The position numbers were made by a program, and so were the translations under genes. This document shows positions 13,595-27,753 of a DNA stretch of 64,000 bases, piece after piece (within the stretch, counting starts at the first letter, position 1; the number at the start of each line of letters is the position of its first letter). Where the stretch lies: positions 73,081 to 137,080 of the forward strand of contig SHNJ01000007.1 in the NCBI GenBank assembly GCA_004295055.1, given 5' to 3'. The notes under the pieces were generated by a model, which was not told where the DNA came from, did not search any database, and saw only the letters and a program-made list of their open reading frames with translations. The stretch is from Alphaproteobacteria bacterium (lineage in GTDB: Bacteria > Pseudomonadota > Alphaproteobacteria > SHNJ01).

Positions 13595-13905
13595 TTTGCC
13601 GCTCCTTGAATTTTGATCATTTCTTTCAAGATTGCATCGCTAATGCCAAGTCCGCCTTTTTGGCTCATGGCGTTGGCATATTCTTGAACCATCATCGAAC
13701 GAAACATATCTTCGCCATGTCCGCCGCCAAATTGGCTATTGGTTTTGATACCGGCAAACATTTGTTGCATCATTTCATTCAAAAATACCGATTCAAAATC
13801 CTGCGCGGCTTTTTTCATTGCCGGCAGATTTTTAGGCGCTGCTTCCGGCAATTTCGCTTCCGGGCGCATCATATCGGCTGTGGTGGCGGGTAAAGCGATA
13901 TCCAT
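13591..13905 (-). CDS. flgJ: Flagellar rod-binding protein (FlgJ N-terminal domain only / CheL-like)
   Basis: AAQDFESVFLNEMMQQMF rod-binding motif; no muramidase domain, as in alphaproteobacteria. Confidence 0.75.
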   Translation of the reverse strand: MDIALPATTADMMRPEAKLPEAAPKNLPAMKKAAQDFESVFLNEMMQQMFAGIKTNSQFGGGHGEDMFRSMMVQEYANAMSQKGGLGISDAILKEMIKIQGAAK

Positions 13906-15035
13906 TACATTACCTCGATATCGGCTTGCATCGCGCCAGCGGCTTTGATGGCTTGCAGAATGCTGATCATATCGCGTGGACCAATGCCAAGAGCATTCAG
14001 GCCGACCACTAAATCTTGAATCGATATACCGGCGCGCATAATGGTCATGCGTTTTTCCGAATCGTCGTCGACTTCAATCTTGGTGCGGTCAACCGTAGTG
14101 GTTTCCCCGGTTTCGGAAAAAGCGTTCGGTTGGGATACTTGCGGTGTTTCTGTAATTTTGATGGTTAGATTGCCTTGGGCGATTGCAACGGTGTTGATGC
14201 GCACATTTTCACCCATAACGATAATGCCGGATTGTTCATCAATCACGACGCGGGCTAATTGATCCGGTGCAATACGCAATTGTTCAATGTCGGTAATAAA
14301 GGCGACGGAATCTTTTTGGTATTTTTCCGGAACTTCAATAACGATAGTGCCAGGATCATTGGCTTTGGCGGCTTGCGCGCCAACGAAGCTGTTGATCGCT
14401 TCGGCAACCCGGCTGGAGGTGGTGAAGTCCGGATTACGCAAAGCAATTTTTAAAGTCTGCAATTCTTTCATTTGGAATGGCAATTCGCGTTCGATGATCG
14501 CGCCATTGGCAATACGGCCGTTGGTTGGCACGCCGCGCGTTACGCTGCCGCCTTTGCCTTCGGCGGTAAAACCGCCAGCGGCAATTTGGCCTTGAGATAC
14601 GGCGTAGACTTCGCCATCAGCGCCAAGCAGGGGTGTAACCATCAAAGTGCCACCCAGTAAACTTTTAGCATCGCCAATAGTGGCGACCGTAATATCAATT
14701 CGGCTGCCTTGACGGGAAAATGGGGGCAGGGTTGCGGTAACCATGACCGCGGCAACGTTTTTGGTTTTCAAGGCATCGTCCCGGGCGTTGATGCCAAGAC
14801 GTTCCAACATACCGATCAAGCTTTCTTTGGTGAATACAGAAGATGTAAGCGAATCGCCGGTGCCGTTCAAACCGACAACAAGTCCGTAACCGACGAGCAT
14901 ATTGTCGCGAACGCCTTCAAAATCGGCGATATCTTTGATGCGGGACATGGCGGCAACCGGGCTTGCAGGCATAAGGCAAGCGATCAGAGCGACCGATAGA
15001 ATGATTTTTCTGCGAATTTCCCCAAAACTAAACAT
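13905..15035 (-). CDS. flgI: Flagellar P-ring protein FlgI
   Basis: Signal peptide, IKDIADFEGVRDNMLVGYGLVVGLNGTGD and full-length FlgI pattern. Confidence 0.92.
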   Translation of the reverse strand: MFSFGEIRRKIILSVALIACLMPASPVAAMSRIKDIADFEGVRDNMLVGYGLVVGLNGTGDSLTSSVFTKESLIGMLERLGINARDDALKTKNVAAVMVTATLPPFSRQGSRIDITVATIGDAKSLLGGTLMVTPLLGADGEVYAVSQGQIAAGGFTAEGKGGSVTRGVPTNGRIANGAIIERELPFQMKELQTLKIALRNPDFTTSSRVAEAINSFVGAQAAKANDPGTIVIEVPEKYQKDSVAFITDIEQLRIAPDQLARVVIDEQSGIIVMGENVRINTVAIAQGNLTIKITETPQVSQPNAFSETGETTTVDRTKIEVDDDSEKRMTIMRAGISIQDLVVGLNALGIGPRDMISILQAIKAAGAMQADIEVM

Positions 15036-15085
15036 GTCTCGACTCGCTTTCTTTCGTTAAAAGCTGTTGAATCATTATTATTGCT

Positions 15086-15101
15086 TGCGAAGATCGTGCC
15101 A
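15086..15101 (-). promoter_or_regulatory. Candidate sigma54 (-24/-12) promoter for flgI: TGGCAC-N5-TCGCA on the minus strand
   Basis: Reverse complement of 15086-15101 reads TGGCACGATCTTCGCA; about 40-nt leader to the flgI ATG. Confidence 0.45.
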
Positions 15102-15323
15102 AAATAAGTTATTGTTAAATATAGGTTTTTTGTTTGTTTTATAGCAAAATTAGGGTAAGAGGTGCCTTGGGTGGGCAAAAAATTCCCAGTCTATATCAAG
15201 GATTTAGATGTTGATTTGGCGTTGCATAATTATTGAATTTGGCCGGATTGGGGACATATTTATCTGGTATGGTATAGTAGCTAGTGTAAAACTCCGATAT
15301 TCTATTAAAGTTCAGCGTAGTTC

Positions 15324-15746
15324 ATGAAAATCAAATCGACGGATTCCGTCAGTTCCAGTGTTGGCGTTCGCAAAGCCGGCAAGACCAAGTCTGCCGGAGG
15401 CAGCAGTTTTGCCAGCCATTTGCAGGAAACCGAAGAAACGCAGGGCGTGATGTCCACGTCCGCGGTAAGCAATGTTGATTCATTGCTTTCATTGCAGGCT
15501 ATGGGATCTTCGACGGATAAAAACACCAAAGCCAGGCAGCATGGAGAAGAGGTTCTGGATGTGCTAGAGCGCGTATTGCACGATTTGTTGGCTGGCGGCG
15601 TGCCCGTTTCGCGTTTGCGAAATCTAGCGGATATGATGCAACGCCAACGGGAATACGCTGGCGTTAGCCCTAAAATGCTTGAAATCATCGATGAAATTGA
15701 AACGCGGGCTTTGGTGGAATTGGCCAAATTGGAAGCCTATTTATAA
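15324..15746 (+). CDS. fliX: FliX-like flagellar regulatory/assembly protein (divergent from flgI as in Caulobacter)
   Basis: Ser/Gly-rich N-terminal half, conserved C-terminal helical region ending EIETRALVELAKLEAYL; divergent arrangement with flgI; family call from memory only. Confidence 0.45.
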   Translation: MKIKSTDSVSSSVGVRKAGKTKSAGGSSFASHLQETEETQGVMSTSAVSNVDSLLSLQAMGSSTDKNTKARQHGEEVLDVLERVLHDLLAGGVPVSRLRNLADMMQRQREYAGVSPKMLEIIDEIETRALVELAKLEAYL

Positions 15747-16349: not shown

Positions 16350-18902
16350 TTATGCGTTTGGCAATAGATGCTTGTTGAGGATTTTCTCTACGGTGGCTAG
16401 TTGCACTGGCTTGCTGATGTAATCATCCATTCCGGCATTCAGGGATTTTTCGCGATCGCCTTCTAATGCATCTGCGGTTAAGGCAATAATTGGGTGACGT
16501 TTAGATTGATTTTCCCTTTCTTTCGATCGGATAAGGTTCGTGGCCTGAAAGCCATCCATTTCCGGCATATGAAAATCCATAAAAATTAAATAATAATCTT
16601 TTTTCAGAAACATATCGACCGCTTCGACGCCATTGCTAGCCACATCGGTATTGCATCCGAATTTGGCCAGTACGCTTCGCATCAGCATTTGATTGATGGC
16701 CATGTCCTCGACTACCAGAATATTGCGATTCTGAAATTGGAGAATGTTGTTTTTGCGTTTTTCAGAAAGACGTGGATCCTGAAAAATGCTTTTAATAAAA
16801 TTACGTGTGATGAAATCAGTTGGTTTATTGCTGCTGATTCTGTCCCAAATTAAAATAATGGTTTGCTGAATTTCGGTGGGGTAATAAGGTTTAGTTAACA
16901 TTCCGGCAAATCCGATGGATGACAATTCCTGTTGATTTCCAGCATAAAGATGGGAAGTTAATAGAATTAAGGCTGTATTTTTGATTTTAGGGTTGGCTTT
17001 TATTCTTTGGGCAAGGGTTTTTCCGTCCTGATCCGGCATACGGTAATCTAGAAGGGCAATGTGATATGGCTCGCCTTTGTCCGCCATTGTTATAAGTTCT
17101 TGATAAGCGGCTTCGGAACTATTAACCGCATTGTGGAAAATATTCCAGTTATGACAATAGGCCGCTAAAATATCCGCACTAACAGGATAATCGTCGACAA
17201 TTAGTAAGCGTACAGAAGATATATCTTTTTTCTCCAGTATGAAACCGCTGGTTTCCTTGGCGCCAGGCGCGTTGCTGGCTATGGTAAATGGGATAGTAAG
17301 ACTAAAAGTGGATCCTTCTCCGAATCTGCTGTTTGCAACAATATCGCCACCCATCATCTCGGTTAATTTCTTGCAAATGGTTAACCCCAAACCACTTCCA
17401 CCAAACCGGCGGGTGGTAGATGCCTCGGCTTGGCTGAAAACAGTAAAAATATGGTCTATTTTATCTGGTGAAATGCCGATACCGCTGTCTTTAATTTCAA
17501 AAGTGATAGAGACTTTTTCCTGATCAATGGATTTTGTTTTTATTTCCAATAAAACATAACCCTCCAAGGTAAATTTCAATGCATTACCGAGCAGGTTGAG
17601 CAGTATTTGCCTGACGCGTACAGGGTCGCCAATCAAATTTTCAGGAATCTCGTTGCTGGCATACATTAATAATTCAAGATTCTTTTCTTTGGCCGTAACA
17701 GCCAAAAGATCCATGCATTCTTCAATGATTTTGGATAGGCTGAATGGAATGGATTCTAAGGTAAATTTACCGGCTTCGATTTTGGTAAAATCCATAATAT
17801 CATTGATTAATGTAAGCAAGGAATCGCCGGACCGGCCGACTATTTCCGCCCAGCGCCGCTGTTCTTCGTCCAAATCGCTGTCTAGGAGTAAAGAAGTCAT
17901 GCCTATGACAGCATTCATTGGCGTTCGTATTTCATGGCTCATATTGGCTAGAAATTCGGATTTCGCCGCGCTTGCTTTTAATAATAAGGTATTGGTGGCA
18001 GCCAGTGTTCTGACCGTTTGGTATAACATTATTAGAATAGCAGTGACGTAGCAGATCAAGACTAAAGATAGTAGAAATAAACCAATATTATAAAATACTT
18101 CTGCATTGCGGGCAATGTCCGATCTTTGTGCAATTAGAGAGTTTAGTTCATTCAATAAGTCCTTATTTTCTGGAGCTAATAATTGTTTGGTCAAGTGCAG
18201 AACATCCACATGAGCATTAAGAATAATTCTGATATGTTTTGCCATATATTCCAAACTTTTCTGGTCATCGACAGATAAGCGATAAGGAAAGTGGTCTATA
18301 TTTTTAAGCGCCTGCTCTACATCGAGTCTGCTTTGCTCTTCCCCATCAATGAGGAATAGTAAAGTTGCCTGGTATAGCGCATCGATTTGAAACGCGGCGT
18401 TATGCTGGTTCTTTTTATGTAGGGCCACATCAAGTTCTTGATATATCGTGGGCATATATTTGGCGGAGTTGCGCAGAATGGCATTTTTCGCCTTGAATTC
18501 TTCTAAGGTAGCTTTGCGGACATTATTAAATTCAATATATTTTTCAATGCCGGATTTTATAGACTGTCCAATAATCTGATATTGGCGAGAGTTATATGGA
18601 GATGGGAGAAGAAAGGAAGCGGATATTTGGTTGGTGGTCTCGATTTCTTCTTGAACGACCAGTGATGTTTCATTAATTGCCTGGGATAGGTGTACTAAAC
18701 TATCATAGTTATTCAATAGATTGTTCTTTGCCAATAAAATATTTTCATTCAACTCCGAATTCAAGCTTCGTAGAGTTAGCAACTCATTAAATATGGCAGA
18801 GTAAATATTTCTGGATGACCAATAAGATTGGTAGAAAAAGAAGCAGACCCCGGCGGCCAGGATTGAAATGAAGAAAAAATGCCTTTGAAGGGAATGTTTC
18901 AT
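16350..18902 (-). CDS. Hybrid sensor histidine kinase with periplasmic sensor domain (2 TM), HisKA/HATPase core and two C-terminal receiver domains
   Basis: H-box [21 protein letters not shown]-box motifs, two REC domains ([14 protein letters not shown]... and [13 protein letters not shown]...DFHMPEMDG); AT-rich codon usage. Confidence 0.85.
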
Positions 18903-18904
18903 GA

Positions 18905-19867
18905 CTACTCTGGGACAGGCAATGTGCCAGTTAAAGTTTTAAGGAATTCAACCAGCTTGTGGCGTTCATCAGCCGATAAGGTGCGGCCCAGTTGGTATTT
19001 GGCCATAATATCGACCGCTTCTTCCAAGGTTTTAGCGGTACCATCGTGAAAATAAGGCGCCGTTTTATTTACATTGCGCAGTGATGGAACTTTAAATACA
19101 TATCGATCTTCTTCTCTATGAGTAACGTTAAAGCGTCCATTATCTTCCTGCGTTAAATTTCCACGATCTTTGAAGTAATCACCAACAATGCCGAATTTCT
19201 GGAACATATTGCCGCCGACATTTTCCCCCTGATGGCATGAAGAACATCCCAAATCTTTGAACAATTTATATCCCGCCTTGGCATCTGCAGAGATTGCAAG
19301 TTTCTTGCCCGTTAAGTATTGATCAAATGGCGAATTAATAGGAATAAGGGTGCGTTCGTAATTGGCGATAGCATCTTTGATATTCTTTTCTGTCGGGGGA
19401 GATTTATAAACTTCTCGGAATGCATCGGCATATTCCGGTATTGTTTTCAGCTTGGCAATAATATCGGGCCAAGTATTGCCCATTTCGTCTGGATTTAAAA
19501 TCGGCCCATTAATTTGTTCTTCTAAAGTCGCCGCGCGGCCGTCCCAGAATTGCGCTAAATTAAGTGCGCTGCCCCAAATCGTAGGTACATTGATAAGCAG
19601 GTTTTTTCCGCTTACGCCTTGGATCGGATAAGGTGCATTTAAAGCGCCGCTATTTGCGATATCGTGACAAGAGGAGCAAGAAAGTTTATCGTTCTTGGAC
19701 AGCCTTGGGTCATGGAATAACTTCTGGCCCAATTTTGCACGTCCATGATCCAGTCCTTTTATGGATGTGACGGGTTGAATAGGTTCATTGCTATAAGACG
19801 TGTGATCCAAACCCATGGCGCAGGAAGGAAACAATAAAAGACAAAGAATAAAGTAAATATAGCGCAT
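18905..19867 (-). CDS. Di-heme cytochrome c peroxidase (CCP/MauG family), secreted
   Basis: Signal peptide; two CXXCH motifs (CSSCHD, CSSCHQG), conserved FWDGRA and PYFHDG; stop overlaps the kinase start (ATGA). Confidence 0.85.
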
Positions 19868-19895
19868 TATTTCAACAGGTTTGTTACAGGGAAAA

Positions 19896-20237
19896 TCATT
19901 CTGAGTTGTTGGTGCTGAGTAAGGCGGATTTAACCAGGCCGTATTCTTGTTCTAATAAACGGAGAATTTTTTGCTTTTCCTCCGGGCTGGTCATGTACTG
20001 ATCTTGCGCATTTTTGCATATATCTGCCAGTTTCTCAGCGCCAAGATTGAGGCTGATGCCTTTCCATGCGTGCGCATGGCGTTTCCATTGTTCGGCGTCA
20101 TTTGGGCCTGCAGTTTGCTGCAGATGACTTAGGCATTCTTCCGACGAATCTAGAAAAACATTGAACAATTGCTTTTCCAAATCGATATCGCCACCGGTTA
20201 ATTCCCTAAGATTGGATAAATTCAGAATTTGATTCAT
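19896..20237 (-). CDS. Histidine phosphotransfer (Hpt) domain protein
   Basis: HAHAWKGISLNLGAEKL matches the Hpt H-x-x-KG-S/A signature; 113 aa. Confidence 0.7.
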   Translation of the reverse strand: MNQILNLSNLRELTGGDIDLEKQLFNVFLDSSEECLSHLQQTAGPNDAEQWKRHAHAWKGISLNLGAEKLADICKNAQDQYMTSPEEKQKILRLLEQEYGLVKSALLSTNNSE

Positions 20238-21241
20238 GAATTTCCCTTTGCCTCTTGGCGGGTGTTTTTGTTCGCCGCCAAATACCGATTAACATAAGAC
20301 AATATTTTTTGTTTGCTAAAAGGCTTGACCACAAAACCTTTGACGTTGTTTTTACGGGCAATTTCCACATCATCGACCGAATGATGGGCGGTGACCATTA
20401 TTAAATGCGCGTTGTTGTCTAATTGCTCAATTTTCTGCGCCAGTTCATGTCCGCTGCCGTCTGGCAATTCAATATCGATGAATGCTATATCTGGCACTAT
20501 TTCCAGGTATAAGCGCCATGCTTCCTCTAATGTTCCTGCGGTGTTTACTTGGAATTTATAACCAAGAATTCCGTACAGCAACTGTTGAGAGAATAATTGG
20601 TCTTCCACAATTAATATGCGTATGTGCTGGCGCCCGATCCGCTGCAATTTGGCACTCATAAAATGCTCTATTTGCTGATCGGTGTGATGAAGACTGGCTT
20701 GGGTAATGGCGCGAGATGTTTTTTTCATGGGGTCTATGGAGGTAAGTTTTGTGGGGATGGATGCTGGTTTGGTATCGATGTCAACTAATTTTGCGGAGTC
20801 GGTTATCTGCTTATTCGGTTCTTCGGGTGAAATGGGAATCGGAAGATCCAGGTCGACTTTCAAAAATTTTTTAAGGAATAGGCTTAGTTCATCGGCCATC
20901 AACTGAGCATCGAAATAGGTAAGAACATCGTCGGTTGTTTTTTCAAACTCCGGTTTCAACATATGTGGGATGATAATGGCTCTTAATTTTTCATAAATAC
21001 GTTTTGGCATGCCGCACCAGGCCAAGTATACATCCCCATTTTCCATGAAAAAAATGCGCGCATCCACGGCGCTATGCATGGCTTGTTTTAAGGTGATCAC
21101 AAATTGATCTTGCGGTATGCTGGTTAGGTATTGTGTCCGAATATTCACAATACTCCACGCGCTGGTATGATTGATATTGATTTCTCTAATCAGTTCAATC
21201 AGCGCTTGCTCGGCCTCATGTTCTGTAATTCCAATCAGCAT
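20234..21241 (-). CDS. Response regulator with C-terminal receiver domain and uncharacterised about 200-aa N-terminal domain
   Basis: C-terminal REC (IRILIVEDQLFS...IDIELPDGSG...MVTAHH...KPF); no family recognised in the N-terminal part; stop overlaps the Hpt start. Confidence 0.75.
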   Translation of the reverse strand: MLIGITEHEAEQALIELIREININHTSAWSIVNIRTQYLTSIPQDQFVITLKQAMHSAVDARIFFMENGDVYLAWCGMPKRIYEKLRAIIIPHMLKPEFEKTTDDVLTYFDAQLMADELSLFLKKFLKVDLDLPIPISPEEPNKQITDSAKLVDIDTKPASIPTKLTSIDPMKKTSRAITQASLHHTDQQIEHFMSAKLQRIGRQHIRILIVEDQLFSQQLLYGILGYKFQVNTAGTLEEAWRLYLEIVPDIAFIDIELPDGSGHELAQKIEQLDNNAHLIMVTAHHSVDDVEIARKNNVKGFVVKPFSKQKILSYVNRYLAANKNTRQEAKGNS

Positions 21242-21409: not shown

Positions 21410-21448
21410 AAGAAAAATGACCGGTTTAATCCGGTCATAAGTTTTTTT
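21410..21448. terminator. Bidirectional rho-independent terminator (ATGACCGG-TTTAAT-CCGGTCAT flanked by A-run and T-run)
   Basis: Perfect 8-bp stem with TTTTTTT on the plus strand and TTTTTCTTT on the minus strand; lies between the flgH 3' end and the phosphorelay operon. Confidence 0.55.
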
Positions 21449-21469: not shown

Positions 21470-22243
21470 TTAGAATGGCAACAAAATATCCATTACCTGA
21501 CTGCCATAGCGCGGCTGCTGCACATCGCTGAGCACGCCGCGGCCGCCATAAGAAATTCTGGCCTCGGCGATTTTGTCGGAGGTAATCGAGTTAACGGAAC
21601 TGATATCGGCCGGGCGAATAATGCCGCTAACGGTCAATTCACGTAATTCATGATTCACGCGAATCTCTTGTTTGCCAAGAATTACTAAGTTGCCATTAGG
21701 CAATACTTGAGTCACCACTGCCGCTACTTTGACATTAATGTCTTCCTTGCGGTCGATCGATGCTTCGCCTTTATTTTTCAAGTCGCTGCTGGTGTTTACT
21801 AAGCTGCTTGGATCAATTGCATTCGGTAATTTTTTGCCCAATTCCGCTTCTAAACCGAATAGACCTGGTACGCCCATGGATTCATCATTTTCGCGTTTGC
21901 GTTCGGTATCGTTATCCAATTTAGCGGAATCCGAAATCTGTACCATGACGGTTAAGATATCTCCGACCCGACCGGCGCGTTGGTCTTTGAAGAAAGATCT
22001 TGATCCCGCACGCCATAAAGAATTCACTTCACGGGTGTCAGGAACGGCCGCTGGCATTGGCATGGTAACGGGGCGATAACCTGCTTGCATGGTTGGATTC
22101 ACCGTGCTGCTTAGGGCAGGGGGCTCGCCTACTTCGGCCAGGCGATCCAAAGTAACGCAGCCAGTCAACAAAAAGCAGGATGCTGTTACTAATAGTACTT
22201 TTGAGTTGCTTAGATGTGATTTTTTCATGATGCTTACTCCCAC
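21470..22243 (-). CDS. flgH: Flagellar L-ring lipoprotein FlgH
   Basis: Lipobox LLTGC, full-length FlgH pattern (GDILTVMV, GNLVILGKQEIRVN). Confidence 0.9.
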   Translation of the reverse strand: MGVSIMKKSHLSNSKVLLVTASCFLLTGCVTLDRLAEVGEPPALSSTVNPTMQAGYRPVTMPMPAAVPDTREVNSLWRAGSRSFFKDQRAGRVGDILTVMVQISDSAKLDNDTERKRENDESMGVPGLFGLEAELGKKLPNAIDPSSLVNTSSDLKNKGEASIDRKEDINVKVAAVVTQVLPNGNLVILGKQEIRVNHELRELTVSGIIRPADISSVNSITSDKIAEARISYGGRGVLSDVQQPRYGSQVMDILLPF

Positions 22244-22987
22244 TTATTTCGCTGCTACGGATTTTTTAGAATTGCTGGTGATGCCGACGGTAGCCTGATC
22301 GGAACCGGTAACAACGGCGTCCAAAATTTTATTGGTTTGTGTATTCAAGGCTCGAATAGTATCTCCCATCGCTCCATCGTTTAACGCGCGCGCTTGATGG
22401 CTGATGGTCAAATATTCGGTTTGATACAGCATGGTGATCAGGTCGTTTTTGCGTACTACGATCGGTGCGCTAACCATGCCAGTGCGAATGACAGATCCTG
22501 ATGCAATTAAACGTTTGGCTGTTTTGCCGACCAATTGTTCTACATTGGTAATTGCGCTATTGCCCAAGCTTGCTTGTTCCATGTCAACAAAGGCGATGTC
22601 GGCATCTTCAATAGTTTCGCCAGCATTGCGTTGAGTGCTTAGAACGGGCACGCTGATCATCGAAATAATACGGCCGGCAAAATTGATTCTTTGTTTCGGA
22701 GAATCGCTAAGGCTGGCCTCGACAGTAAAGCTTTGCGCCGCTTTGTTGATTTCCAGATTGTCCAATATGATTTGATCATTGGCGCTCATGCTGATCAGAT
22801 TTTTACCATTGCGGCTGACTCGTACTTGAACGTTGCTGCCGTATCCTTGATCTAAGGCGGCGGCCTTGACGGCAGCGATCAGTTCCGCATCGGTAATCAC
22901 GCGTGGAGTTACCGTTGCTTTTTCTTCAGCATGAGCGCTAAAAGAAAAAGACAGCAGAACTAAACAAATGAGCAAGATACGGGACAT
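22244..22987 (-). CDS. flgA: Flagellar basal-body P-ring formation chaperone FlgA
   Basis: Signal peptide, SAF-type domain, position between flgG and flgH. Confidence 0.8.
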   Translation of the reverse strand: MSRILLICLVLLSFSFSAHAEEKATVTPRVITDAELIAAVKAAALDQGYGSNVQVRVSRNGKNLISMSANDQIILDNLEINKAAQSFTVEASLSDSPKQRINFAGRIISMISVPVLSTQRNAGETIEDADIAFVDMEQASLGNSAITNVEQLVGKTAKRLIASGSVIRTGMVSAPIVVRKNDLITMLYQTEYLTISHQARALNDGAMGDTIRALNTQTNKILDAVVTGSDQATVGITSNSKKSVAAK

Positions 22988-23011
22988 TACAGAACTCCTA
23001 TATTTAACCTA

Positions 23012-23797
23012 TTACCGCATTTGGCTGATGGTACCCATCATTTGATCGCCGGTTTCGATGACTTTGGAATTCATCTCATAGGCGCGCTGGGCGGTAATCA
23101 AGGTTGTAATCTCGGAAACGATATTGACGTTCGAAGCTTCTAAATAATTTTGTTGGATCGATCCGAAACCGGTCGTGTTGGCTTGGCCGGTAACTGGGGC
23201 GCCGGACGATTCGGTCTCAAGATAAAGGTTATTGCCGTGTGCGGCTAAACCAGACTCGTTTGGAAAAGTCGCCAGATCCAATTGCCCAACGTTGCTCAAT
23301 GCGGTTTGACCATCCTGTTTGACTAATACAGCGCCGTCTTCGCTTATTGCTACATCGACTGCATCGCTGGGAATTGTGATGCTGGGTTGAACTTGATATC
23401 CATCCTGCGTAACCAACTGGCCGCTGGCGTTCAATGTGAACGCGCCTTCGCGGGTATAGGCGGTTTCGCCGTTGGGTAATAAAACTTGAAAGAATCCCTT
23501 GCCTTTGATCGCCAAATCATATGGATTGCCGGTCGATTGCAAAGTACCTTGATCGTGGATACGGTAAACGGCCGCGGTTTGCACGCCCAGACCGACTTGG
23601 ACGCCGGTTGGAACGACTTCGCCACCGCCACCGGTGGATGCACCAACGCGGCGCATGCTTTGGTATAATAAATCCTGAAATTCGGCCCGGCTGCGTTTAA
23701 AGCCAGTAGTGTTCAAGTTGGCGATGTTGTTCGAAATGACCTCAACGTTTGTTTGTTGAGCTAACATTCCGGTGGCAGCAATACTAAGGGCGCGCAT
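23012..23797 (-). CDS. flgG: Flagellar distal rod protein FlgG
   Basis: MRALSIAATGMLAQQTNVEVISNNIANLNTTGFKRSRAEFQDLLYQ and C-terminal rod motif. Confidence 0.92.
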   Translation of the reverse strand: MRALSIAATGMLAQQTNVEVISNNIANLNTTGFKRSRAEFQDLLYQSMRRVGASTGGGGEVVPTGVQVGLGVQTAAVYRIHDQGTLQSTGNPYDLAIKGKGFFQVLLPNGETAYTREGAFTLNASGQLVTQDGYQVQPSITIPSDAVDVAISEDGAVLVKQDGQTALSNVGQLDLATFPNESGLAAHGNNLYLETESSGAPVTGQANTTGFGSIQQNYLEASNVNIVSEITTLITAQRAYEMNSKVIETGDQMMGTISQMR

Positions 23798-23807
23798 GAT
23801 TTTTCTC

Positions 23808-24569
23808 CTATTGCATTTGGGCTAGACGGCGGATCGCTTGGCGGACCCGGTCGTCTTCTCGTTCAATCATCTTTTGTGCCGACTCATAAGACCGCGACAC
23901 TTGCATCATTTTGGTCATTTCTTGTACGCTTTGGACATTGGATGCCTCGATACTGCCTTGAACCATCACGGGATGTTCAATTGGGGCCGGAGCATCGATC
24001 GATCCTTGTGGTAACTTGTATAATCCTGCGCCTTCGCGTTCTAGTAATCCGGCGTTTTTAAAACCGACCAGGCCGATTTTTCCGATCACGTCCTTGTCGG
24101 CGTAAATCGTGCCGTCTTGTGCCACGGTAATTTGCTCTGCGGCAGATGGGACCACGATAGGGGCGCCGCCATCCGATAACAGTGGATCGCCATTTTCATT
24201 GACGATTTGACCATTACCATCCAGACGGAAATGGCCATCACGGGTAAAACGGTTGCCGGCGGCGGTGCCGACAGTAAAGAATCCTTCGCCATTGATTGCG
24301 AAATCGAAATCGGCACCTGTATGGGTAATAGAACCTTGTGAAAAATCGGTTACAACGCCTAATTCTTGAACATAAGATGTATCTTCGCCATCTTCATTTT
24401 TGGCTAAGTATTCTTTGAATGCCAAATTGCTGGATTTAAATCCGGCTGTGGAGATATTGGCAATGTTGTTGGCAATAATCTCCATTTGGCGAGTAAGCGC
24501 CGTTTGTTGAGATATGGCTACGTATGCACTGCTTTCCACTGTCAAATCCCTTTCCAAAAACCAATTCAT
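23808..24569 (-). CDS. flgF: Flagellar proximal rod protein FlgF (true start probably the GTG at 24539)
   Basis: Rod-family N-terminus (SAYVAISQQTAL...ANNIANISTAGFK) and C-terminus; AAGGGA Shine-Dalgarno 7 nt before the internal GTG. Confidence 0.88.
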   Translation of the reverse strand: MNWFLERDLTVESSAYVAISQQTALTRQMEIIANNIANISTAGFKSSNLAFKEYLAKNEDGEDTSYVQELGVVTDFSQGSITHTGADFDFAINGEGFFTVGTAAGNRFTRDGHFRLDGNGQIVNENGDPLLSDGGAPIVVPSAAEQITVAQDGTIYADKDVIGKIGLVGFKNAGLLEREGAGLYKLPQGSIDAPAPIEHPVMVQGSIEASNVQSVQEMTKMMQVSRSYESAQKMIEREDDRVRQAIRRLAQMQ

Positions 24570-24592
24570 TATTTTTTTTCTGGAAGGGTAGT

Positions 24593-24608
24593 TGCAGCTT
24601 CTGTGCCA
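24593..24608 (-). promoter_or_regulatory. Candidate sigma54 promoter for the flgF-flgG-flgA-flgH operon (TGGCAC-N5-CTGCA on the minus strand)
   Basis: Reverse complement of 24593-24608 is TGGCACAGAAGCTGCA; a plus-strand TGGAAG-N5-TTGCA element (24581-24596) overlaps it. Confidence 0.45.
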
Positions 24609-24871
24609 AAATCAAATTACATACAAATCAATGAGTTAATATTCGGAATTGGCGCGGTGATACGGATTTAGCACTATGGATGGTAGATTCTGCCTACTAT
24701 TTCTTGCCAATACTGTTGCAAAGCATTGAAATGAGATAATATTTTTATAATGCACCCCGCATAAATGGCTGGCGTGCAAGTATTTGTTAACCAAGTTCCT
24801 ATACTGTTAAGTGTAGGCACAAAGGTTTTCCGAGTTCCGCATTTATTTCATTTAGTTCCATAGGCATCATC

Positions 24872-25429
24872 ATGGCCGACGATAAAAAAGAAGATAAAAA
24901 AGAAGACGAAAAAGAAAAAAAAGAAGGGGAAGAGGGCGCTGCTGCTGAAGGCGAGGGCGGCGAGAAAAAATCAAAAAAGAAATTGATTTTGTTCATCGTG
25001 CTGCCAATTGTCGCCATCTTGGGCGCCGGCGCGGGTTTGTATTTCTCCGGCATGCTGGATAGCTTGCTTGGCAAAGAAGCAGAACATGCGGAAGAGGCGA
25101 AGGAAGAGCCTAAAAAAATCGAAGATTTCGTGTATTTCGATTTACCTGAAATCGTGGTGAATTTGTCGGCTACCGGCAAGAAAAATACATTTATGAAAAT
25201 TTCCATCAGCCTTCAGGTGGAAAAAGAAGAGGAAAAAACCGAGCTTGAAAAAATCACACCGCGTATTGTCGATAAGTTCCAAGTTTATTTGCGCGGCCTG
25301 CAAGTAGAGGATTTACAAGGCTCTGCCGGTATTTATCGTTTACGCGAGGAGTTATTGGCCCGGGTGAATGTAGTAACGGAACCGATTAAAATTCACGACG
25401 TTTTATTCAAAGAAATTTTGGTGCAATAG
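24872..25429 (+). CDS. fliL: Flagellar basal-body-associated protein FliL
   Basis: Lys/Glu-rich N-terminus, single TM, FliL core (YFDLPEIVVNL...MKISISLQV). Confidence 0.85.
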   Translation: MADDKKEDKKEDEKEKKEGEEGAAAEGEGGEKKSKKKLILFIVLPIVAILGAGAGLYFSGMLDSLLGKEAEHAEEAKEEPKKIEDFVYFDLPEIVVNLSATGKKNTFMKISISLQVEKEEEKTELEKITPRIVDKFQVYLRGLQVEDLQGSAGIYRLREELLARVNVVTEPIKIHDVLFKEILVQ

Positions 25430-25436
25430 GTTAACT

Positions 25437-26507
25437 ATGGCTGACGATACACCACCACCAGAAGAAGCAAAACCCGAAGGCGAAGCGCCGAAAGAAGGCG
25501 AGCCAGGTTGGGACGATCAGGTTGCCCTGAACGAGGCCGCCAGTAGCCGGGTTTTGAACCAGGACGAAATCGACAGCTTGCTTGGCTTTGATGAAGCTGG
25601 CAGCGAGGCTGCGGCGGCATCCGGCATTCAGGCGATTGTCAATTCCGGCATGGTGTCTTACGAGCGCTTGCCTATGCTCGAGGTTGTGTTTGACCGTCTC
25701 GTGCGTGTTATGTCTACGTCATTGCGTAACTTAACATCGGACAACGTCGAGGTTTCTCTGGATAATATTTCTTCGATCCGCTTTGGCGATTATTTGAATT
25801 CGATTCCGTTGCCTGCGATGTTGGGCGTGTTTAAGGCGGAAGAATGGGACAATTACGGTCTGGTGGTTATCGACTCGTCGCTGATTTATTCGATCGTGGA
25901 CGTGTTGCTTGGCGGACGTCGCGGCACCGCCGCGATGCGTATTGAAGGCCGTCCGTACACAACTATTGAACGCAATCTGGTTGAGCGTATGGCCAATGTT
26001 ATTTTGGGTGATTTGACGGCGGCGTTCGATCCGTTAAGCCCAGTTACATTCCGTTTGGAACGTCTTGAAACCAACCCACGGTTCGCCACTATCGCTCGTC
26101 CCGCCAACGCCGCGATTCTGGCCCGGTTGCGCGTGGATATGGATGATCGTGGCGGAAGAATGGAATTGCTATTGCCATACGCCACGCTGGAACCTGTGCG
26201 CGAATTGTTATTGCAAATGTTCATGGGTGAAAAATTCGGCCGCGATACGATTTGGGAAAGCCACTTGGCGACAGAACTTTGGTATACGGATTTACCGGTA
26301 CATGCTGTTTTAGACGAAGTCATGATCCCGCTGGGCCAAATTATGAACTGGAAGGTTGGCGATAAGATTATGTTGGATGTTCAGCCGAATTCTCCGGTCG
26401 AGGTGCGGTGTGGAGACTTATCTATGTTTTCCGCGAAGATTGGCCGCAAAGGCAAAAATATCGCGGTGCGCATTGATGGCAAATTGGGCAAATTGGTGAA
26501 TTTATAA
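25437..26507 (+). CDS. fliM: Flagellar motor switch protein FliM
   Basis: N-terminal CheY-binding LNQDEIDSLLGF motif and FliM middle/C-terminal domains. Confidence 0.9.
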   Translation: MADDTPPPEEAKPEGEAPKEGEPGWDDQVALNEAASSRVLNQDEIDSLLGFDEAGSEAAAASGIQAIVNSGMVSYERLPMLEVVFDRLVRVMSTSLRNLTSDNVEVSLDNISSIRFGDYLNSIPLPAMLGVFKAEEWDNYGLVVIDSSLIYSIVDVLLGGRRGTAAMRIEGRPYTTIERNLVERMANVILGDLTAAFDPLSPVTFRLERLETNPRFATIARPANAAILARLRVDMDDRGGRMELLLPYATLEPVRELLLQMFMGEKFGRDTIWESHLATELWYTDLPVHAVLDEVMIPLGQIMNWKVGDKIMLDVQPNSPVEVRCGDLSMFSAKIGRKGKNIAVRIDGKLGKLVNL

Positions 26508-26508
26508 A

Positions 26509-27012
26509 ATGAATCAAGAGATGTTATCTTTAGGGTTGGATATTGTGATTGCGGTGTTGTTATGCGCAACCATCGTTTACGCCTATATGCTAAACAAGCG
26601 TTTGCAAGCTTTGCGCGCGGACCGGGAAGAAATGGAAAATCTGCTGCGTAAGTTTTATGACGCTACCAATAAAGCGGATGCCAGCATTAAAGGTTTAAAA
26701 CAAACATCAGAAGTCATGGGCGGCGAATTGCAGGAAAAAATCGACAAAGCCAGATCCTTGCGTGATGAAATTACTTTTATGTTGGAACGTGGCGATTTAC
26801 TGGCTAATCAGCTTGAAGGCGCTATCAGCGCTTCGCGTACGGAACGGCCTGGCCAGGACTTAAGCGGATTGATGAATAAAGCCGCGCAAAACATGGAAAA
26901 GAAAAGCAAAACTAAAGATCTGCGTAATTTAGAAAATATTTTTACAGAAGAAGCCGAAGGACAATCGGCGGTGGAAAAAGAACTGTTAAAAGCATTAAAA
27001 GGGTTGCGATAG
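26509..27012 (+). CDS. Hypothetical flagellar-locus protein (single N-terminal TM, coiled-coil)
   Basis: Translationally coupled to fliM (stop/start adjacent); no family assigned. Confidence 0.4.
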   Translation: MNQEMLSLGLDIVIAVLLCATIVYAYMLNKRLQALRADREEMENLLRKFYDATNKADASIKGLKQTSEVMGGELQEKIDKARSLRDEITFMLERGDLLANQLEGAISASRTERPGQDLSGLMNKAAQNMEKKSKTKDLRNLENIFTEEAEGQSAVEKELLKALKGLR

Positions 27013-27018
27013 ACTATA

Positions 27019-27753
27019 ATGGATAAAATTCGCGTTTTGCCATTGCTGATATTTACCTGCTGCTTCATGCTGTTCGTCCGCATTGAAACAATTTGGGCGG
27101 AAAGCAAGGAAATTGCAAAAGAAGCGGCCGCGACCAAGGAAGAGCCAAAAAAAGAAGAAACAAAAGCGGCGGAAACAGTAAAGACTGAAGAAGCGCCGGC
27201 CGCAACCGGCGAGGCGGCAGCCGAAAAACCAGCTGAGGGCGGGGCTGAGCCATCTAAAAACACAGCCGATCCATTGCTATTTAACGATTCGGAACTGGAT
27301 ATATTGCAGTCCTTATCCGCGCGCCGGGCACAATTGGATGAGCGTGAGCGCCAGATCGAACAAAAAGAAGGCTTGTTGCAAATTACCGAACAGCGTATCG
27401 AAGAAAAGCTGACGGAACTAAAGACGCTTAAAGCGGAATTAGAAGCGACTAAGTCAGAAGTAGAAAAGATGACCAGCAGTCTTCAAGGTAAAGAAAAAGA
27501 AGAATTGCTCAGTCTGGTCAAAACCTATGAAACTATGAAGCCAAAAGACGCCGCAGCGCGATTTGATAATTTAGATCTGGCTTTGCAGGTACGTATTGCA
27601 CGCAATCTGAAGGAAGCTAAATTGGCGCCGATTATGGCGGCTATGGACCCCATGAAGGCCGCAAAATTAACGACCGAGCTGGCAACAAGCAAAAACATCC
27701 CTGATCTTAATCCGGAACCAGCCGGCACGCCGCCACCGCCGAAATCCAAATAG
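27019..27753 (+). CDS. motE: MotE-like periplasmic flagellar protein (MgtE_N-like C-terminal domain)
   Basis: Signal peptide, Lys/Glu-rich coiled coil, C-terminal AARFDNLDLALQVRIARNL...IMAAMDPMKAAKLTTEL resembling the MgtE-N/MotE family. Confidence 0.5.
   Translation: MDKIRVLPLLIFTCCFMLFVRIETIWAESKEIAKEAAATKEEPKKEETKAAETVKTEEAPAATGEAAAEKPAEGGAEPSKNTADPLLFNDSELDILQSLSARRAQLDERERQIEQKEGLLQITEQRIEEKLTELKTLKAELEATKSEVEKMTSSLQGKEKEELLSLVKTYETMKPKDAAARFDNLDLALQVRIARNLKEAKLAPIMAAMDPMKAAKLTTELATSKNIPDLNPEPAGTPPPPKSK

Follow-up and report, generated by a model that had tools for sequence, protein, structure and literature searches.

The window analysed here is a stretch of 64,000 nucleotides (nt) from an alphaproteobacterial genome (GenBank assembly GCA_004295055.1, contig SHNJ01000007.1, positions 73,081 to 137,080); it carries, on the minus strand, a gene for a periplasmic di-haem cytochrome c peroxidase (CCP) placed directly upstream of a gene for a hybrid sensor histidine kinase whose periplasmic sensor region is a DAHL domain. 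We propose, with a probability of roughly 0.6, that the CCP and the DAHL domain of the kinase constitute one periplasmic sensing unit, in which the peroxidase would act as a haem co-sensor for peroxide or redox state. The pairing with the same sensor domain recurs over at least seven phyla and the peroxidase is therefore probably part of the sensor, not only a detoxifying enzyme. The components of this proposal differ in firmness: functional coupling of the CCP with the DAHL domain appears very probable, a direct physical complex between the two rather likely, and the chances that H2O2 is the physiological signal look about even. The window locus represents the kinase type of a conserved module, CCP-DAHL, which is itself a variant of accessory-protein-dependent sensors. 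The elements of the pair (aa, amino acids; TM, transmembrane helix) are as follows:

16350..18902, minus strand: hybrid sensor histidine kinase, 850 aa, ordered TM1, DAHL, TM2, HisKA, HATPase_c, REC, REC (Pfam)
18087..18824, minus strand: periplasmic DAHL sensor domain, aa 27-272 (PF19443, residues 34-267)
18465..18497, minus strand: most conserved DAHL motif, F136-146, taken together with Y66-D67 (nt 18693-18710) and H223 (nt 18222-18239)
18900..18907, minus strand: CCP/kinase junction, TAG-tc-ATG (CCP stop, 2-nt spacer, kinase start)
18905..19867, minus strand: periplasmic di-haem CCP, 320 aa (PF03150)
19229..19246, minus strand: second haem motif of the CCP, C208-S-S-C211-H212, then Q213 (CxxCHQ signature)
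19580..19618, minus strand: CCP loop G84-V-S-G-K...N93-V-P-T, with V85 in the distal-His column and N93 as the Ca-site Asn (alignment)
19661..19678, minus strand: first haem motif of the CCP, C64-S-S-C67-H68, for the peroxidatic low-potential haem (invariant in alignments)
19811..19867, minus strand: signal-peptide-like N-terminus of the CCP, aa 1-19 (read by eye from the translation)

The CCP matches PF03150 (CCP_MauG) with E=7.6e-53 and 179.6 bits against a cut-off of 25.6; together with the two CXXCH sites, C64SSCH68 and C208SSCH212, this bears out the di-haem peroxidase named by the initial annotation. With bacterial CCPs of solved structure, it shares 48-50% identity (E=2e-77 for Shewanella oneidensis CcpA 3o5c, 1.7e-74 for 1iqc). 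Its N-terminus, with a positive n-region and a hydrophobic core followed by SCA/AMG, predicts periplasmic export, in agreement with the signal peptide proposed earlier. The kinase is 100% identical to a protein (P0001) of an Alphaproteobacteria metagenome-assembled genome (MAG). Its hydrophobic helices, at about residues 8-26 and 272-296, enclose a periplasmic domain of ~245 aa, which had likewise been placed between two TM helices at a length of ~260 aa and which matches Pfam DAHL (PF19443) with 77.1 bits against a gathering cut-off of 38. The junction between the two genes reads ...GAG TAG tc ATG AAA...; the CCP stop codon, described as overlapping the kinase start, is in fact separated from it by a 2-nt spacer, and the window sequence holds no in-frame start further upstream in the kinase open reading frame (ORF). 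The claim of translational coupling stands in part: the tight juxtaposition of the genes would be compatible with it, but there is no overlap in the window, though one of 4 nt is usual in relatives.

Conservation of the CCP-DAHL pair

We counted as a CCP-DAHL pair any two co-oriented genes of which the CCP gene comes immediately upstream and the DAHL gene follows it within a few nt or overlaps it by as little. A search with the full-length kinase gave three informative contexts of DAHL kinases, 34-37% identical to the window kinase overall and 23-26% in the sensor domain. All three have a co-oriented CCP homologue directly upstream of the kinase gene, and one repeats the whole order regulator-Hpt-CCP-kinase; two further contexts are also CCP-linked, making five of five metagenome contexts. 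A genome scan covering one genome per GTDB species, made with a 5-sequence DAHL alignment, returned 38 loci; every one has a CCP homologue (37-75% identity, tblastn with the window CCP) in this position. These loci span seven phyla, namely Pseudomonadota (alpha, beta and gamma), Cyanobacteriota, Acidobacteriota, Bdellovibrionota, Armatimonadota, Planctomycetota and Myxococcota, and the genera among them include Bradyrhizobium, Dongia and Pseudomonas. On plasmids, a tblastn search with a chemoreceptor-type DAHL query gave 16 records, with the CCP gene upstream in 12 and lacking in four, which represent three distinct loci. The adjacency, whose conservation had been set beforehand as the check that could refute the initial annotation, is conserved: a CCP gene stands directly upstream of 55 of the 59 sampled DAHL genes, far beyond chance.

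The commonest junction, counted from the first in-frame start, is a 4-nt overlap (27 of 38 examined, the three kinase-search contexts included), and RefSeq records the same arrangement of a 'cytochrome c peroxidase' followed, with a 4-nt overlap, by a 'DAHL domain-containing protein' in Gloeocapsa PCC 7428, Vitreoscilla filiformis and Rhizobium etli. At one locus (L132:157-2176), the CCP gene is followed by that of a stand-alone DAHL protein of 303 aa, which is built as TM-DAHL-TM and lacks an output domain, and, 4 nt later, by that of an FGE-sulfatase/SH3 protein. At another (L130:49-1972), an IS200/IS605-type pair (Y1 transposase and TnpB/Cas12f-like protein) adjoins the CCP-DAHL pair; the Y1_Tnp family is also matched by three of 39 translated DAHL ORFs (alignment A3).

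The outputs attached to the sensor domain vary. All 39 scanned proteins are Pfam DAHL proteins, and their outputs comprise 29 HATPase_c, four GGDEF, three EAL, one adenylate/guanylate cyclase and one MCP; the pairing tracks the DAHL sensor domain, not the kinase. The CCP as a regulated target of the two-component system was rejected, as the pairing persists with chemoreceptors, GGDEF/EAL proteins, cyclases and output-less DAHL proteins. Independence of the output type thus argues against the CCP being a regulated target or merely a co-expressed detoxifier. It is this conserved adjacency, following the DAHL domain across output types, that lends support to the suggestion of the initial annotation that the CCP may serve as a co-sensor for the periplasmic domain of the kinase.

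The DAHL family itself is large and divergent, and clustering at 50% identity divides it into ~2,200 clusters. Used alone, the DAHL domain gave zero matches in a word-indexed protein search and a profile of 36 DAHL domains retrieved only four proteins, because the domain is too divergent for a word index; a five-domain profile found 2,184 clusters in a library of 1.84 billion proteins, with kinase, chemoreceptor and GGDEF/EAL architectures. The mean pairwise difference across 88 DAHL domains is 78% (~22% identity), against 54% for the CCPs in a mirror-tree comparison. The distance matrices of the two partners correlate with r=0.75, for a permutation maximum of 0.12, which shows co-diversification.

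Active site of the linked peroxidases and conserved residues of the DAHL domain

The window CCP retains the canonical features of a bacterial CCP, with a His/Met-ligated electron-transfer haem, the inter-haem Trp, the Ca-site Asn and the catalytic Glu and Gln; its residues M288, W108, N93, E128 and Q118 align with M275, W94, N79, E114 and Q104, respectively. What it lacks is the canonical distal His, carried by a GHxWQ loop, V85 being found in the distal-ligand column, which is His71 in P. aeruginosa numbering. In resting canonical CCPs, this His ligates the peroxidatic haem and underlies reductive activation. With V85 in its place, the peroxidatic haem is therefore predicted to be permanently open.

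Linked and unlinked peroxidases were compared in a reverse test, in which metagenomes were scanned with a CCP alignment including canonical enzymes, and the 80 loci closest to the window CCP plus six plasmid loci were searched downstream with a DAHL hidden Markov model. Among the 74 informative loci, those most like the window CCP, a DAHL domain follows in 53 and is missing in 21. The 53 sequences and 39 from genome loci make up a set of 92 linked CCPs, to be set against the 21 unlinked ones. The G[HD]xW loop occurs in none of the 53 linked CCPs and in 12 of the 21 unlinked (Fisher p=1e-8), and a His in the distal-ligand column in one of 53 versus nine of 21 (p=2e-5); over all 92 linked sequences, the counts are zero and one. 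Canonical CCPs are DAHL-linked in none of 12 cases. Locus L123:2876-4984 has two canonical CCP genes (GHNWQ) in tandem, spaced by 3 nt and not adjoined by a DAHL gene. Distal-His loss as a property unique to linked CCPs was rejected: 12 of the 21 unlinked CCPs also lack a His in that column, three as G-D-x-W variants and nine with no loop at all, several of the nine being ~470 aa long, a size as expected for tri-haem YhjA-like enzymes.

Both haem sites are kept in all 92 linked CCPs. In the 39 from genome loci, none of which has a distal-column His, the haem motifs, W94, H261 and M275 are present throughout and N79 in 38. The nearest neighbour of each linked CCP is also linked (92 of 92), so that, judged by their sequences, the DAHL-linked CCPs are a cluster of their own. 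The strongest discriminating position is that of Q213, CxxCHQ as opposed to CxxCHN, with Gln in 93% of the linked and 5% of the unlinked sequences; the positions that separate the two groups cluster after the second haem motif (Q213, E215, N216, N220 and M221, within aa 213-222, nt 19202-19231). In canonical CCPs, the domain with the second haem motif receives electrons from a redox partner; aa 213-222 may form a changed docking surface.

The catalytic Glu is replaced in 22 of the 92 linked CCPs and in none of the 21 unlinked (p=0.012), and Gln104 in 15 of 92 and none of 21, respectively. These losses stem largely from a Bradyrhizobium-type clade; the Glu is kept in 70 and the Gln in 77 of the 92, and the window CCP has both. 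The clade without Glu114 (L013, L016, L021, L024, L025, L030, L032-L034, L036, L039 and L042, from Bradyrhizobium, Dongia, Rhodopila and alphaproteobacterial MAGs) mostly has Ile there; eight members also have Gln104 replaced by Asp, and the segment before FKVPSLRN is shortened, both haems and the gene pair being kept. By their sequences, these proteins resemble 'pseudo-peroxidases' that have been kept for a role in signalling. The changed loop at the active site and the recurrent Glu loss speak against catalytic turnover as the function under selection; the earlier preference for a co-sensor over a detoxification enzyme agrees with this picture, as the loss of the distal loop and, in about a quarter of the linked CCPs, of the catalytic Glu would fit signalling better than bulk detoxification.

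On the side of the sensor, a confident AlphaFold2 model of the window DAHL domain (predicted local distance difference test, pLDDT, 93.3; predicted template modelling score, pTM, 0.84) is entirely helical, with a two-module double four-helix-bundle and helices at residues 2-27 and 245-304, and the modelled fold is closest to McpS and to the sensor of TorS. Ten residues are 83-100% conserved among the 88 DAHL domains: Y66, D67, F136, K137, N140, A141, L143, N145, S146 and H223. The window kinase has all of Y66, D67, F136, K137, N140, N145, S146 and H223, and the F136-146 motif with Y66-D67 and H223 is a candidate site for CCP contact or for the signal.

Proposed signalling route and competing explanations

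In the mechanism that we propose, the CCP would be exported, have its haems attached and then dock on the DAHL domain, a double four-helix bundle, of the membrane-bound kinase, probably via the eight conserved residues found in the window kinase (Y66, D67, F136, K137, N140, N145, S146 and H223). Since the distal His is absent and the haem predicted to be permanently open, reaction with H2O2 would require no reductive activation. The state of this haem would be set by H2O2 together with the electrons arriving from the cytochrome c pool of the periplasm; any change in that state, or in conformation, would travel through the DAHL domain and TM2 to the kinase core and alter autophosphorylation. 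The phosphoryl relay would then run from the His of the H-box to the Asp residues of the kinase receivers, to the His of a 113-aa Hpt protein and finally to the Asp of a 335-aa regulator.

Several observations weigh against the co-sensor proposal. For Tlp10 of Campylobacter jejuni, the receptor on which the DAHL family was founded (PMC9796306), direct binding of small molecules, malate included, is reported (Elgamoudi 2021, cited in PMC9796306), and a DAHL domain may therefore be able to sense ligands unaided. In the window CCP, every catalytic residue checked is intact (E128, Q118, W108, M288, H274 and N93), and it could therefore be a fully active peroxidase. The peptide pattern of the genome scan came from CCP-linked DAHL domains and may under-sample divergent, unlinked DAHL proteins, and a mirror-tree correlation could also be expected from the simple co-inheritance of neighbouring genes. 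Finally, DAHL kinases at three plasmid loci have no CCP gene within 2.5 kb (L133 in Rhizobium sp. BG6, L135 in Rhizobium sp. CC-CFT758 and L140 in Rhizobium sp. 007, the last between virD4 and virB11), and one of them keeps all the conserved residues. The other two orphans have lost four and six near-invariant DAHL residues, K137 and H223 in both, and five CCP-linked relatives keep them all. RefSeq names the two annotated orphans 'VirA-like sensor kinase'.

An unlikely alternative is that the CCP is a partner-modifying enzyme of the MauG/MbnH type, carrying out an H2O2-driven oxidation of a DAHL residue, for example Tyr66, Lys137 or His223, either as a one-off maturation that builds a ligand site or as a peroxide-dependent covalent switch. 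MauG, acting on pre-methylamine dehydrogenase, and MbnH, acting on MbnP, belong to the same superfamily and are encoded beside the protein they modify; they are also the two best NCBIfam matches of the window CCP, but with scores far under the cut-offs (162 versus 362.85 for MbnH and 155.9 versus 443.85 for MauG). A permanently open five-coordinate haem is a trait of MauG too, and a handful of near-invariant polar or aromatic residues in a very divergent domain would suit partner modification. The similarity of the window CCP to true peroxidases (E=1e-77), however, far exceeds that to MauG (1e-20) and that to 6e1c, a di-haem enzyme (5e-26); all 39 genome-locus linked CCPs have Met as the ligand of the second haem, where MauG has Tyr; the alignments contain no conserved Trp in DAHL domains; and the loss of the Glu in 22 of 92 linked CCPs is hard to square with an obligatory oxidising enzyme.

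It is also improbable that the CCP is a plain co-expressed enzyme, an ordinary periplasmic H2O2 reductase working in detoxification or respiration next to a DAHL domain that detects something else, such as organic acids, with a common transcript serving only to have both proteins produced at once; in a variant of this explanation, the CCP locally shields or tunes the sensor with no signalling contact. The complete set of catalytic residues and the ~50% identity to characterised CCPs would agree with it, as would the binding of several small molecules reported for Tlp10 (PMC9796306) and the proposal that bacterial CCPs make H2O2 usable as an electron acceptor (PMC5656828). A housekeeping enzyme is not expected, however, to remain beside a single sensor domain across seven phyla and five output types, among them chemoreceptors and c-di-GMP enzymes, which do not control transcription; nor would it account for linked CCPs forming a separate cluster with an altered active-site loop, about a quarter of them without the catalytic Glu, when canonical CCPs are DAHL-linked in none of 12 cases. 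In C. jejuni, moreover, mutants in the CCP gene docA are not notably peroxide-sensitive yet fail in colonisation (PMC13462783, PMC3156733).

Very unlikely is a haem co-sensor for another ligand, be it NO, O2, CO, sulfide or the redox poise of the cytochrome c pool, by analogy with cytochrome c', H-NOX or NosP: the loss of the distal-His loop in linked CCPs, the fact that an entire subclade has kept the gene pair but not the Glu and Gln that serve as peroxide-specific acid-base residues, and the precedent of H-NOX and NosP haem proteins encoded beside kinases and cyclases could point that way, against which stands the complete peroxidase active site of most linked CCPs, including that of the window.

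The co-sensor proposal can be extended from the window to the family. The case seems evenly poised for CCP-DAHL being a widespread and ancient receptor module, in which a di-haem peroxidase has been recast as the subunit that perceives periplasmic H2O2 or the redox state of the cytochrome c pool. The outputs of such a module (histidine kinases, chemoreceptors, c-di-GMP enzymes and nucleotide cyclases) would be interchangeable, its range would take in at least seven phyla, or eight if C. jejuni is counted from the literature, and the four-gene phosphorelay of the window would be one example of it. In bacteria, cytoplasmic peroxide is sensed by OxyR and PerR; to our knowledge, no dedicated peroxide or redox receptor is established outside the bacterial inner membrane. 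If the extended proposal is true, gene expression, chemotaxis, c-di-GMP and cyclic nucleotides would all be tied through one module to H2O2 or electron flux in the periplasm; the DAHL family would gain a function and the well-studied CCP enzyme family a second role. The Glu-less CCPs and the orphan DAHL kinases with a degraded conserved site are natural variants that offer experimental handles.

Locus context and comparison with known systems

The CCP and kinase genes are the distal half of a unit of four minus-strand genes, for response regulator, Hpt, CCP and kinase, lying between flgH and dksA. The remaining features of the unit are:

16380..17213, minus strand: receiver domains of the kinase, REC1 ~aa 564-677 and REC2 aa 727-841 (two Pfam Response_reg stretches)
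17283..17966, minus strand: kinase core, with HisKA at nt 17769-17966 and HATPase_c at nt 17283-17630 (Pfam)
18825-18881 and ~18015-18089, minus strand: TM1 and TM2 of the kinase, respectively
19896..20237, minus strand: stand-alone Hpt phosphotransfer protein, 113 aa (Pfam Hpt 8.3e-11)
20234..21241, minus strand: response regulator, 335 aa (Pfam Response_reg 2e-19)
21417..21438, no strand assigned: terminator-like palindromic hairpin between flgH and the regulator gene (consensus match only)

The regulator stop codon overlaps the Hpt start (ATGA), and a gap of 28 nt separates the Hpt and CCP genes; the hairpin, terminator-like by its consensus, would mark the upstream boundary of the unit. 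The parts of a multistep phosphorelay are all predicted to be present, from the H-box His (HEIRTPMN, aa 323-330) and the ATPase domain to the receiver Asp residues, the Hpt His and the terminal receiver. REC1 and REC2 each have an Asp at the expected acceptor position, in motifs read from the translation as LLDYRMP and IFMDFHMP; the putative phospho-His of the Hpt protein is H56 in an HAWKG motif (nt 20070-20072), and the relay motifs read from the translations include FIDIELPDG. The receiver domain of the regulator is C-terminal (aa 209-317, nt 20291-20617), and its N-terminal ~200 aa (aa 1-208, nt 20618-21241) have no Pfam match even at E<=10. Orthologues occupy the same operon position in L001 (32% identity) and L006 (71%), and the N-terminal segment is kept in both operons, where, for example, IFFMENGDVYLAWCG aligns with LYFYPDGDLVVAWQG; the regulator is likely the terminal acceptor of the relay.

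A flagellar cluster surrounds the sensory operon (13905-15746 and 21470-27753, with FlgI, FliX, DksA, FlgH, FlgA, FlgG, FlgF, FliL and FliM-like ORFs; FliX and DksA were called by Pfam, the remaining flagellar ORFs recognised from translations only). Motility control, as inferred from this location, was rejected because the location is common only to the closest relative, L006, which has the identical synteny FlgH-response regulator-Hpt-CCP-kinase-DksA-FliX-FlgI; the orthologous operon of L001 sits amid efflux and cytochrome-biogenesis genes, not in a flagellar cluster. In that JGI metagenome contig (L001:8537-14145), the genes after that of the DAHL kinase encode a FIST-domain protein, another hybrid kinase and a cytochrome c biogenesis protein in which ResB and CcsA are fused. 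The four-gene module (16350-21241) has a G+C content of 0.40-0.43 versus 0.47-0.50 in its flanks, and identities between the window and L006 are 90-97% for the flanking proteins, 70-75% for the module proteins and 56% for the DAHL domain. Horizontal acquisition of the module, or fast adaptive evolution of its sensor, could account for the lower G+C content and faster divergence.

Among known systems, the hybrid kinase TorS senses trimethylamine N-oxide by way of TorT, a partner protein in the periplasm that hands it the signal. By its modelled fold, the DAHL kinase would share with TorS a stacked helical-bundle periplasmic sensor in a hybrid kinase with an Hpt-mediated relay, and the analogy with binding-protein-dependent kinases drawn in the initial annotation gains from this modelled likeness; there is nevertheless no detectable sequence relationship between the DAHL and TorS sensors (~10-13% identity in structural alignments). 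In TorT-TorS, as in LuxP-LuxQ, ChvE-VirA and XylFII-LytS, the partner is a small-ligand binding protein, whereas the partner in the window is a redox enzyme with two c-type haems. H-NOX and NosP control a neighbour-encoded kinase or c-di-GMP enzyme via protein-protein contact. In this, the H-NOX-HnoK and NosP-NahK pairs would resemble the window unit, with a separate haem protein beside a kinase or c-di-GMP enzyme and several output types; H-NOX and NosP are, in contrast, cytoplasmic NO-responsive proteins with b-type haem, whereas the window unit is periplasmic and has c-type haems in a peroxidase fold.

In comparison with its enzymatic relatives, the window CCP has in common with P. aeruginosa CcpR, N. 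europaea CCP and S. oneidensis CcpA the two CXXCH sites, the inter-haem Trp, the Met ligand, the Ca-site Asn and the Glu and Gln, at 48-50% identity; it differs from canonical CCPs in having GVSGK and CxxCHQ where these have the GHxWQ loop and CxxCHN. With MauG and MbnH, it shares the Pfam family, a gene beside that of a specific partner and the open five-coordinate haem, predicted in its case, but it falls under their family cut-offs, has Met and not Tyr at the second haem, and its DAHL partner has no conserved Trp. Peroxidases as H2O2 receptors are known from yeast, where Gpx3/Orp1 relays to the regulator Yap1. Yeast Ccp1 has likewise been described as an H2O2 sensor, the peroxidase being the primary receptor that passes the signal on (PMC5369544). 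These relays differ from the window unit in that they are eukaryotic, involve unrelated proteins and chemistry (a mono-haem class I or a thiol peroxidase) and are not membrane receptors.

The closest counterpart, and the sole literature precedent that we found for a CCP-sensor module, is contained in remarks on DocA (Cj0020c/CcpA1) and DocB (Cj0019c/Tlp10) of C. jejuni. There, as in the window, a CCP gene lies directly upstream of, and is coupled to, that of a transmembrane DAHL receptor: docA (cj0020c) overlaps and is translationally coupled to docB (cj0019c), and a 2026 paper that notes this coupling speculates that DocA signals peroxide availability to Tlp10 (PMC13462783). The statement of the initial annotation that the pairing was undescribed as a signalling module holds only for its wider form: within an incomplete coverage of the literature, no paper came up on the CCP-DAHL association across phyla, on its being independent of the output or on the active-site signature. 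The C. jejuni pair differs from that of the window in having a chemoreceptor output and not a hybrid kinase phosphorelay and in belonging to the phylum Campylobacterota, and the interaction there is only a suggestion in the literature covered. Both docA and docB are required for chick colonisation, yet protection from oxidants depends on neither C. jejuni CCP to a major extent; DocA stands phylogenetically apart from the typical CCP Cj0358, nearer to tri-haem quinol peroxidases, and shows no oxygen regulation (PMC13462783, PMC3156733, PMC5656828). If the co-sensor proposal is true, it would explain why DocA is needed in colonisation but not in peroxide resistance, and the puzzle of a colonisation factor encoded beside Tlp10 would become directly testable.

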